Positions 23,057 through 40,069 are shown, counted from the stretch's first letter. The stretch is DNA of 53,318 nucleotides from a virus (IMGVR_UViG_3300033463_000040:1-53318); one strand, 5' to 3'. Made by a program: numbers and translations. The notes: generated by a model from the letters alone, not told the origin.

Positions 23057-23133
23057 GCTCCCTTAGCTCAATCGGATAGAGCATCAGATTTCTAATCTGC
23101 AGGTTGGGGATTCGAATTCCTCAGGGAGTGCCA
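23057..23133 (+). tRNA. tRNA-Arg (anticodon TCT)
   Basis: Acceptor GCTCCCT/AGGGAGT plus G-CCA; D arm GCTC/GAGC; anticodon loop TT-TCT-AA; T loop TTCGAAT. Confidence 0.92.
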
Positions 23134-37044: not shown

Positions 37045-37299
37045 ATGGCACATATTATAGAGATCAAAACACCAAATTGTCAAAGATGTAAGCAGTTTGA
37101 GCCAGAATATCAGCAAATACAAGCAGAATTTCCAAATAATACTTATGATGTGTTAATTTTTGGTCAAAATCCAGAAGCAATGGAATATGCTACTAAATAT
37201 GGTATTAAATCTGCACCCACTTTTGTAATCGAACAAGAAGGTAAAGATACTATAGTAGTTAAACAAGAAATTTTACGTGATACATTAAAATCCTTATAA
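37045..37299 (+). CDS. Thioredoxin/glutaredoxin-like protein
   Basis: TPNCQRCKQF CxxC motif; KYGIKSAPTFVI cis-Pro motif. Confidence 0.8.
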   Translation: MAHIIEIKTPNCQRCKQFEPEYQQIQAEFPNNTYDVLIFGQNPEAMEYATKYGIKSAPTFVIEQEGKDTIVVKQEILRDTLKSL

Positions 37300-37835: not shown

Positions 37836-39590
37836 ATGACCGAAGAAAAGAAAGCGATTAAAATTAAGTTTCCTGAATTCGATAATAATATGGAAAATCC
37901 ATATCAGGATGAGATGAATAAGCTTATTGATGCAAATTTGTCTGATGCTACAACTACTCGTACTTTAAAAAATATTACAGAAACATTAACGAAAGCGCTT
38001 CGGTCTAAGTATGATATTAAAGATAAAGAAGTTTTAAAAGATAAAGTAAATGAATTACTTAAATTACATGGTTTATCTGCTGAAAATTTTGATCCATTAG
38101 CTAATATCTCCAAACAAGTATTTGGTAATCTTCAGTCTGTAAATGATGTATCTATTGATGATAATGCAAATAAAACAGATTCAAATATGACAGGTGTTTG
38201 TGTAGAATCATTTCTACCATATCAAAAATTAGCAGGATATGATTATTTATATCAAACTATTAAAGATTTATATGGTAAAGAAGAGGCTAAAAAATGTACA
38301 GCAGATATGTATGATTTTAGTCTTTTTTTAAACGATTCTACTAAAATCCTTATTCCATATTGTTATTGTATCGATGCTTCTAAAATTGTAACAGAAGGTC
38401 GTAATTTTGGTCAAGTACATTCTTCACCTGCTCATCGTATTTCTACTTATATTTCAGTATTAGGAGATACAATTCGTGAAATTTCCTTTAATATTGCAGG
38501 TGCTGTAGCCATTGGTACTTTCTTTATGGATGTTTGTCATTTGGCAATTTACCGTGAACGTATTGCTTTAGATGACCTTAGAAATGACAAAAAAGTACGG
38601 AAATCTATGGCAAATCATTTCCAGCAATTTATTCATACAGTAAATCATTATTCTCGTAATGCTGTAGAATCACCTTTTACCAATGTATCGTTATTTGATA
38701 AAAACAAATTAGAAGGTTTAATCGAAGATGATAATTATGGTTGGTATTTTCCTAAAAAAGCAGCAGTATGCGAAGATAATAATATAGAAGATACAAAAGA
38801 AGCTTGGAAAGAATTTGTTTTAGATTATATTGAAGAATTACAAGAAATTTATATTGATGTCTTCGATGAAGGTGATCCATTACGTGGTGGTTTACAATTT
38901 CCATTTCCTGTAACTACCTGTAACTTTGGTACTACTAAAGATGAAAGCGGTAATAATAAGTTAACATATGAAGATAATAAATTGCTTGATTATTTGACCA
39001 AGAATGCAGATATTTCTCGTTATAATATTTATGCTTCAGAAGGTTCAAAAGTTGCTTCATGCTGTCGTTTATTAAGCGATTCTGACTTTTTAGCATATGC
39101 AGGTGGTGTTAATTCATTTGGTGGTTCACAGGTCTCTTTAGGCTCACATCGTGTAGTAACTATTAATTTTGCTAGATGTGCTTATGAAGCCGAATCTTAT
39201 GATGACTTTAAAAAGATTGTAGCAGAGCGTGTTGCTAGAATGGGTAAGATTTTAAAAGCACATAAAGTTTTAATCTTAAAATTAGAAGAATTAGGTAAGC
39301 AACCTTGGATTTCTAATGGATGGATTGATATGTCTCATATGTTTAGTACTTTTGGTTGTGTCGGATATGTAGAAGCTGATAAGATCTTAAAATTTAAATT
39401 TGATCATATCGATTTTGATTACATGAAAGATTTCTTAGTGTATTTCAATGATGAATGTCAAAGAATTGCTACTCAAGAAAACATTATTTTTAATATTGAA
39501 GCAATCCCAGCCGAAGGTGCTGCGCCAAAGATTGCTAAAGCAGATAAACTAATTTTTGCTGATGAAAATGGTGATTACTTATACGAATAG
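37836..39590 (+). CDS. nrdD: Class III ribonucleotide reductase, catalytic N-terminal part
   Basis: PYCYCID, QQFIHTVN, PFTNVSLFD, FPFPVTT, SCCRL finger loop, GSHRVVTINFAR, IEAIPAEG. Confidence 0.88.
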   Translation: MTEEKKAIKIKFPEFDNNMENPYQDEMNKLIDANLSDATTTRTLKNITETLTKALRSKYDIKDKEVLKDKVNELLKLHGLSAENFDPLANISKQVFGNLQSVNDVSIDDNANKTDSNMTGVCVESFLPYQKLAGYDYLYQTIKDLYGKEEAKKCTADMYDFSLFLNDSTKILIPYCYCIDASKIVTEGRNFGQVHSSPAHRISTYISVLGDTIREISFNIAGAVAIGTFFMDVCHLAIYRERIALDDLRNDKKVRKSMANHFQQFIHTVNHYSRNAVESPFTNVSLFDKNKLEGLIEDDNYGWYFPKKAAVCEDNNIEDTKEAWKEFVLDYIEELQEIYIDVFDEGDPLRGGLQFPFPVTTCNFGTTKDESGNNKLTYEDNKLLDYLTKNADISRYNIYASEGSKVASCCRLLSDSDFLAYAGGVNSFGGSQVSLGSHRVVTINFARCAYEAESYDDFKKIVAERVARMGKILKAHKVLILKLEELGKQPWISNGWIDMSHMFSTFGCVGYVEADKILKFKFDHIDFDYMKDFLVYFNDECQRIATQENIIFNIEAIPAEGAAPKIAKADKLIFADENGDYLYE

Positions 39591-39599
39591 GAGTAAAAA

Positions 39600-40031
39600 A
39601 TGCGTAAAAGAAAAATGGAAGATATATATGCTAATCAATGGTGCAGTTTATGGGAAGATTTTACAATCTCTGAAAAAATGAAACGAGATGGTGAAATTAA
39701 TTCACTTATGACAGGTGGATCTATTGTTCACTATTCAGTAGATAGTAAATTAACTTCACAACAAGCTAAAAATATGATTATGAAAGCAATTGATGCAGGT
39801 GCAGAACATTTTGCTTTGAATTGTGTTTATACAGAATGTCGTGAATGCCATAAAGTAGAAAAAGGTAACTTTGAAATATGTCCACACTGTGCTAGTAAAA
39901 AATTAAATCATTTTTCTCGTGTAATTGGATATTTTTCAATTGTAGAAAACTGGAATCCTACTCGTAGAAAAGAAGATTTTCCAAATCGTAAGTTTATTAA
40001 AGCAGAACAACTTAAGGAACAGTTAATCTAA
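39600..40031 (+). CDS. nrdD: Class III ribonucleotide reductase, separate C-terminal glycyl-radical/Zn-ribbon part
   Basis: TGGSIVH, CRECH...CPHC, FSRVIGYF...NWNPTRRKED...R; own AGGAG RBS. Confidence 0.88.
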   Translation: MRKRKMEDIYANQWCSLWEDFTISEKMKRDGEINSLMTGGSIVHYSVDSKLTSQQAKNMIMKAIDAGAEHFALNCVYTECRECHKVEKGNFEICPHCASKKLNHFSRVIGYFSIVENWNPTRRKEDFPNRKFIKAEQLKEQLI

Positions 40032-40039
40032 ACTTCTCA

Positions 40040-40069
40040 AAAAAAGAGGTTGAAATATACCTCTTTTTT
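40040..40069 (+). terminator. Intrinsic terminator
   Basis: AAAAAAGAGGT-N8-ACCTCTTTTTT. Confidence 0.7.

Follow-up and report, generated by a model that had tools for sequence, protein, structure and literature searches.

A class III ribonucleotide reductase encoded by two genes, with the radical glycine on the small chain, in a clade of uncultivated phages

How is a ribonucleotide reductase (RNR) made from a gene that two in-frame stop codons interrupt upstream of the segment carrying its radical? This question is raised by a stretch of 53,318 nucleotides of viral DNA (IMGVR_UViG_3300033463_000040:1-53318, hereafter the window), in which nrdD, the gene for the class III RNR catalytic subunit, is laid out as two consecutive open reading frames (ORFs) whose products are 584 and 143 aa long. 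The source record is a 117-kb IMG/VR virus contig (49% complete, 28% GC) from a large uncultivated gut phage; it includes myovirus-type and replication genes and a single NRDD locus. The catalytic subunit of a class III RNR is expected to be one polypeptide, whereas the window specifies it through two cistrons with stops between them. This break is real, old, and kept by selection, and we regard it as probable, with moderate confidence, that the two products form an obligate two-chain enzyme, derived by a genes-in-pieces route and working like the fused form.

Two genes for one NrdD

The junction reads ...TAC GAA TAG GAG TAA AAA ATG CGT..., with TAG at 39588-39590, TAA at 39594-39596, and the second ATG at 39600, preceded at a gap of 6 nt by the Shine-Dalgarno (SD) sequence AGGAG. 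The spacer between the ORFs is 9 nt and both are in one frame. An earlier reading of this stretch, made from the sequence alone (hereafter the sequence-only reading), had described the same two stops and the same SD placement, and the sequence agrees with it. The Pfam family NRDD (PF13597) is matched over profile positions 42-432 by the 584-aa product and 438-555 by the 143-aa product, and the 631-position NCBIfam model NF006127 is covered from 16 to 499 by the large product and from 497 to 629 by the small one. Hence, the two products are consecutive, contiguous, and non-overlapping parts of one NrdD with nothing missing, and full-length coverage of the family is reached only by both together.

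The small chain starts with a basic strand, MRKRK, followed by an ANQW motif, and carries both the radical motif SRVIGYF, in which Gly110 is encoded by GGA (39927-39929), and a CxxC...CxxC zinc ribbon (Cys80, Cys83, Cys94, and Cys97; nt 39837-39890). Across 27 small chains, Gly110 and the first three of these cysteines are invariant and Cys97 is nearly so. The earlier claim that the radical glycine and the zinc ribbon lie wholly in the 143-aa product is thus borne out by the sequence and by the small-chain alignment. So is the claim that the enzyme has no ATP-cone, as the large product gave no Pfam match to an ATP-cone or other extra domain at E<=0.01.

The large chain holds the finger loop, ASCCR, which has no leading Met (SCCR at residues 408-411, nt 39057-39068) and aligns to residues 328-331 of the Thermotoga maritima enzyme (TmNrdD), along with a NIEAIP motif whose Glu555 (39498-39500) aligns to TmNrdD Glu495. 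An SCCR without Met combined with Glu at this position marks thioredoxin-dependent class III RNRs (PMC9669993), and by alignment the window enzyme has this N. bacilliformis/T. maritima-type signature. The signature fits the phage thioredoxin gene that heads the nrd unit, and the encoded thioredoxin is therefore the likely reductant, as predicted from sequence. In two related loci (L004:1835-3409 and L020:2928-3991), the large gene is interrupted by 1.1-1.6 kb near residue 400-410, at the SCCR finger loop, probably by an intein at the catalytic cysteine.

Conservation and selection

Relatives were sought among 5.8 billion proteins. Stand-alone small proteins of ~144 aa formed 49 clusters (57-87% identity) and large pieces of 581-592 aa formed about 80 (56-92% identity), the latter all stopping within a few residues of ...GNY... 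Among the loci fetched, 23 distinct contigs are split, with spacers of 9, 10, 11, 12, 13, 17, 19, 20, 24, 25, 27, or 89 nt that fall in any frame, and in every resolved split junction the ATG is preceded by GGAG, GAGG, or AGGA at a distance of 6-12 nt. About 19 differing junction DNA sequences were obtained from independent assemblies, and of the 127 relatives examined that have 480 aa or more, 82 are split. Strong purifying selection acts on both genes. In comparisons of the window with three split relatives, the large gene has a ratio of nonsynonymous to synonymous substitution rates (dN/dS) of 0.04-0.05 and the small gene one of 0.08-0.11; dS exceeds 1 in each ORF, and synonymous sites are near saturation.

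These cluster counts, the frame-free spacers with their SD sequences, and the dN/dS values exclude an assembly error, a pseudogene, and read-through, bypass, or frameshifting as explanations of the junction. A broken gene or an assembly or sequencing artefact might be suspected from the two in-frame stops and from the few close relatives that are fused, but it is effectively refuted by the ~19 junction sequences in independent assemblies, each resolved one having an SD and an ATG, by a dN/dS of 0.04-0.11 across both sides of the break, and by the retention of all catalytic residues. We consider it just as improbable that a single chain is still produced, through stop read-through, ribosomal bypass, frameshifting, or protein trans-splicing. 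The shared frame of the window ORFs would allow this, and phage T4 gene 60 is a precedent for bypassing a coding gap; however, the frame is not kept in relatives with spacers of 10, 11, 13, 17, 19, 20, 25, and 89 nt, the window has two different stops and a tRNA-Arg (TCT) as its sole tRNA, and neither piece has an intein Pfam match that would indicate intein halves at the new termini. In addition, the sum of 584 and 143 aa matches the 724-729-aa length of fused forms.

The view of the sequence-only reading that the split evolved rather than arose as a single error is therefore upheld by the many independent contigs, the SD at each resolved junction, and the purifying selection, and the conservation of the split, which it had proposed to check, extends to the 23 contigs and the 49 small and ~80 large clusters. 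Among these loci, the L010/L058 junction has an 89-nt non-coding spacer, vs 9-27 nt elsewhere, which may be the remnant of a deleted insert. In public records of metagenome-assembled genomes, the large pieces are labelled “hypothetical protein”.

Place of the break in the fold

The nearest solved structure is TmNrdD (phmmer E 5e-51). The read-through translation of the window, with both stops written as Gly, was modelled with AlphaFold2 (AF2) using 55 homologues as the alignment, which yielded a model with a predicted local distance difference test (pLDDT) score of 89.4 and a predicted template-modelling score (pTM) of 0.91. TmNrdD (4U3E/4COI) was also the top Foldseek match, with a template-modelling (TM) score of 0.80-0.86 and an E value of about 1e-31. 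In this model the junction is a beta-hairpin, in which residues 580-585 (DYLYE and linker) pair with residues 588-593 (linker and MRKRK) at a pLDDT of about 90; compared with TmNrdD (residues ~513-520), with short-loop relatives, and with outgroups, this hairpin is an inserted element. The break sits at the tip of this clade-specific beta-hairpin, and in the split form the acidic C-terminus of the large chain (...DYLYE) and the basic N-terminus of the small chain (MRKRK...) may form a ribbon without a turn.

Following the hairpin, the modelled small chain continues with a helix, a barrel strand (43-47), a further helix, another barrel strand (70-74), the zinc ribbon, the Gly loop, and two C-terminal helices, the two barrel strands corresponding to 631-635 and 658-662 in read-through numbering. 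In TmNrdD, the zinc ribbon follows the last barrel strand and precedes the Gly loop (PMC4493059). Together with the two modelled strands, this suggests that the small chain is larger than a glycyl radical domain and completes the barrel. By AF2 and Foldseek, the ten-stranded barrel and its finger-loop cysteine are accounted for by the two chains together.

Split and fused alleles

Three junction alleles coexist in the clade, namely short-loop fused (712-717 aa), long-loop fused (724-729 aa), and split forms. The long-loop fused forms carry the extra hairpin residues common to split forms, and both have about 7-9 residues more than short-loop relatives, outgroups, and TmNrdD. Among split junctions, at least two types occur, namely ...GNYxx[E/D]stop / MRKFKMP... 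(type A) and ...GNYNFstop-stop / 19-20 nt / ME..(T/V)..LHGSYKLP... (type B), the latter with a small chain of 152 aa. The fused protein P0050 (85-87% identical) is nested among the nearest split relatives of the window, and at the junction a single in-frame block of 27 nt, holding the stop, the SD, and the ATG, sets it apart from its split neighbours. The sequence-only reading had reasoned that a fused gene in close relatives, combined with stops that the reads do not support, would speak against a genuine split; P0050 provides the first of these two observations, but the stops are upheld by many independent contigs.

In a tree of the large-chain region, the split or fused state would have to change 11 times, with at least 9 of these changes forced by well-supported branches, and a C-terminal tree is similar, with 14 changes. 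We rejected these counts as numbers of independent fission events because of contig-edge fragments among the “small” proteins of the C-terminal tree and because of intragenic recombination. In a sliding window along nrdG, nrdD, and the thymidine kinase gene (tk), pairwise identity jumps between 75% and 99% within the gene, which indicates that intragenic recombination moves junction alleles between phages. Fused and split forms also alternate among near relatives from overlapping sample series of the Joint Genome Institute (JGI), suggesting that the two forms are near-neutral, or nearly equivalent, alternatives.

Two further loci fall outside this series. L016 was set aside as a candidate split, as the ORF upstream of its NrdD piece runs into a scaffold gap; the piece itself (L016:723-1520, P0255) is a C-terminal part of NrdD fused to a Lys- and Glu-rich tail of ~130 aa. 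In L015:2-1893, a 141-aa NrdD small piece (36% identical) begins 14 nt after a gene that ends like a C5 DNA methyltransferase, and the contig is too short to reveal a large piece.

Mobile DNA and a likely origin of the break

In a distant NrdD lineage, represented by L012 (41% identity in the small piece), the break falls in the same loop as in the window enzyme, and there the gap is occupied. After the large piece, whose end is ...DHWIFDGPDPDWN, comes a terminator-like hairpin, two genes matching PHROG 3339 “homing endonuclease” (E 7e-119 and 2e-44) stand between the pieces, the small piece begins MNVKERIYANQF..., and a third phrog_3339-type gene lies 3' of it. A closer relative, L002 (88% identical), has a GIY-YIG homing endonuclease gene (phrog_314, E 5e-37; L002:3717-4595) between the small nrdD gene and tk, an interval that in the window contains no such gene. 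The three L012 genes around the small piece (L012:863-6426) are DUF7487/phrog_3339 paralogues, two with weak GNAT/Mom-like matches and one with a weak REase_MTES_1575 match. In this and neighbouring phage clades, the NrdDs of relatives P0055-P0092 and P0182-P0220 are heavily colonised by inteins (PF14890, PF14528, PF05204), and NrdD proteins of 1553-1987 aa imply several inteins in one gene.

For the homing endonuclease MobE in NrdA of phage Aeh1 and MobA in a topoisomerase, insertion is known to add terminal extensions and may be followed by loss of the endonuclease and by secondary fusion (bioRxiv 10.1101/2022.08.31.505936; PMC3653736). From these precedents, the endonuclease-filled split of L012, the L002 endonuclease, and the inteins of relatives, we propose a series for the window. 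A short loop would be the starting state, into which a free-standing homing endonuclease would insert, splitting the gene and adding extensions at the new termini (“genes in pieces”). Loss of the endonuclease would then leave a short spacer with stop, SD, and start, as in the window, and some lineages would re-fuse by small in-frame deletions to give long-loop fused forms. By analogy, then, an endonuclease probably produced the split of the close clade, and the break resembles a scar that mobile DNA left behind in a surface loop.

Probably a regular subunit rather than a spare part

In the two-chain enzyme that we favour, the two cistrons would be co-transcribed and translated separately to give a canonical class III RNR. 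On the 584-aa chain would lie the specificity region, the greater part of the ten-stranded barrel, and the finger loop bearing the thiyl cysteine (SCCR); the 143-aa chain would add the two final barrel strands, the zinc ribbon, and the radical-glycine loop. The chains are predicted to assemble non-covalently, with the acidic tail and basic head pairing as strands of a surface beta-hairpin, and NrdG, encoded upstream, would place the radical on the small chain's Gly110, with the neighbouring phage thioredoxin as the likely reductant. We infer that the split enzyme is functionally equal, or nearly so, to the fused one.

Several observations weigh against this reading. The model of the assembly is that of one artificial chain joined through a 5-residue linker, and recombination confounds both the number and the direction of the split-fused changes read from the tree. 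No endonuclease was seen between the pieces in any of ~50 close-clade loci, and the phrog_3339 endonuclease was not found in the 117-kb record (49% complete), so that a mobile-element origin for the split of this clade rests on analogy. Finally, split forms have persisted for long and are in the majority, which could also mean that they confer a selective benefit.

One such benefit was put forward in the sequence-only reading, in which the small chain is an autonomous part comparable to GrcA/YfiD, the spare part of pyruvate formate-lyase (PFL): oxygen would cleave the chain at Gly110, the damaged 143-aa chain would be discarded, and a fresh copy activated by NrdG would join the intact 584-aa body. 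The position of the oxygen-labile residue on the small chain and the long maintenance of the split in many lineages under purifying selection are in line with such an exchangeable cartridge. Spare parts have been validated for PFL only (YfiD and T4 Y06I), and their existence outside PFL is treated as an open question in reviews (PMC8683613; PMC13450708), one from 2026 calling it still undetermined. However, the small chain is the sole carrier of the radical, and is thus a regular subunit rather than a spare. In the model, it also holds two strands of the barrel core, so that exchange would require the barrel to open. It has no match to Pfam Gly_radical (PF01228), and PF01228 or GrcA-type domains, like other RNR classes, were not found in the 117-kb record (49% complete). 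Nor does the small gene have a second copy or a phage promoter motif of its own: the GTTCTA motif is absent inside nrdD, where sigma-70-like matches occur at chance level, and the SD of the small gene resembles in kind the one before the large gene. The near-neutral alternation of fused and split forms among close relatives from overlapping JGI sample series and the anaerobic gut habitat point the same way. The autonomous GrcA-like part is therefore not supported by these results, and we consider oxygen repair by subunit exchange an unlikely function of the split.

Another possible benefit concerns activation. One-piece NrdDs keep the radical Gly buried, and its activation requires movement of the C-terminal domain (PMC4493059); NrdG might instead activate the free small chain, ahead of assembly or in its absence, and be spared this opening, much as GrcA is activated as a free small protein (PMC13450708). 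However, fused relatives with the same NrdG neighbour exist, and a lone small chain would expose hydrophobic barrel strands. This advantage seems to us doubtful as well, leaving the obligate two-chain enzyme, equivalent to its fused relatives, as the preferred reading.

Gene neighbourhood

The genes follow the order thioredoxin, NrdG-type activase, large nrdD, small nrdD, hairpin and T run, tk (Table 1). The thioredoxin gene is kept 5' of nrdG in relatives L002, L003, L020, and L034, and an activase gene adjoins nrdD in the related loci whose sequence includes that flank. The activase matches the NCBIfam NrdG model TIGR02491 with an E value of 5.8e-15, under the cut-off of the model, and its matches to NrdG models all remain below cut-off. 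The inverted repeat at the end of the unit is a possible terminator or attenuator that would close the nrd unit before tk; a consensus scan did not flag it. The only tRNA detected in the window is the tRNA-Arg (TCT), at 23057-23133.

Table 1. Features of the nrd unit in the window, with positions counted from its first nucleotide
Feature	Position	Strand	Basis
Thioredoxin gene, 84 aa, first of the trx-nrdG-nrdD unit	37045..37299	+	Pfam PF00085, E 1.3e-8
NrdG-type radical S-adenosylmethionine (radical-SAM) activase, 171 aa	37306..37821	+	Pfam Fer4_12 and Radical_SAM
NrdD large chain, 584 aa: helical region at the N-terminus plus barrel strands as far as the NIEAIP strand; no glycyl loop	37836..39590	+	Pfam NRDD 42-432, AF2 model, TmNrdD alignment, dN/dS
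Junction: TAG, AGGAG (39589-39593), second in-frame TAA, ATG	39588..39602	+	Read in sequence
NrdD small chain, 143 aa	39600..40031	+	Pfam NRDD 438-555, alignment, AF2 secondary structure, dN/dS
Inverted repeat AAAAGAGG/CCTCTTTT then T run, between small nrdD gene and tk (ATG 40086); possible terminator or attenuator	40042..40069	+	Read in sequence

Relation to known systems and significance

The window enzyme shares with the one-piece NrdD/NrdG systems of T. maritima (4COI/4U3E) and phage T4 (1HK8) its fold, the SCCR loop, the Glu of TmNrdD Glu495, the position of the zinc ribbon, the RVxGY motif, and a neighbouring activase, but its chain is interrupted some 110 residues ahead of the radical Gly, inside an inserted hairpin, and is encoded by two cistrons. 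Split catalytic subunits are already documented for class I and class II RNRs. According to papers citing the original descriptions (Friedrich 2007; Crona 2011), NrdA-a/NrdA-b of Aeromonas phage Aeh1, split by MobE, is likewise a phage RNR catalytic subunit in two ORFs that has kept its function, with short extensions at the new termini and homing endonucleases active at the locus, as here in L002 and L012. From the same accounts, Aeh1 NrdA differs in being class Ia, whereas the window enzyme is class III, has no endonuclease between its pieces (9-nt spacer), and has the radical site on the piece that was split off. The class II NrdJa/NrdJb pairs of Pseudomonas aeruginosa and Thermus phage phiYS40 (12-nt spacer) resemble the window in having consecutive ORFs, a very short spacer, and a zinc module on the C-terminal piece (PMC9669993; PMC3653736), but that class uses B12 and the small NrdJ piece has no radical site.

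Like Escherichia coli GrcA/YfiD and phage T4 Y06I, the latter also phage-encoded, the small chain belongs with glycyl radical proteins of ~14-16 kDa served by a radical-SAM activase (PMC8683613). Unlike GrcA, which accompanies an intact PFL as an additional copy and substitutes for the cleaved radical domain only, it is the sole radical carrier, belongs to the NrdD family rather than to PFL (no PF01228), and adds two barrel strands and a zinc ribbon. The large chain of the window ends before the Gly loop, and no full-length enzyme with its own radical domain stands beside the small chain.

In their survey, Dwivedi et al. report phage nrdD genes interrupted by introns, inteins, or unexplained fragmentation, as well as split nrdJ with a 12-nt spacer, and do not list the two-gene arrangement of the window (PMC3653736). 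A megablast of the region against GenBank phages gave no match, and tblastn against the same phages retrieved only distant one-piece NrdDs, at most 33% identical, so that no cultured phage shows this split. In a full-text literature search, not exhaustive, neither a class III RNR nor any other glycyl radical enzyme with its radical Gly on a separate polypeptide was found described in print.

The clade offers a natural experiment, in which orthologues of 60-90% identity are found in split, long-loop fused, and short-loop fused form and the fused ones at ~87% would serve as built-in controls. With such orthologues at hand, differing at the junction by as little as a 27-nt indel, it becomes directly testable whether the separation of the chains affects recovery from oxygen, activation by NrdG, or neither. 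If an exchangeable cartridge were to prove true, spare-part-like repair would for the first time be known from a glycyl radical enzyme other than PFL. More broadly, the locus may show how homing-endonuclease traffic and recombination can fix, and later undo, gene fission in an essential enzyme.

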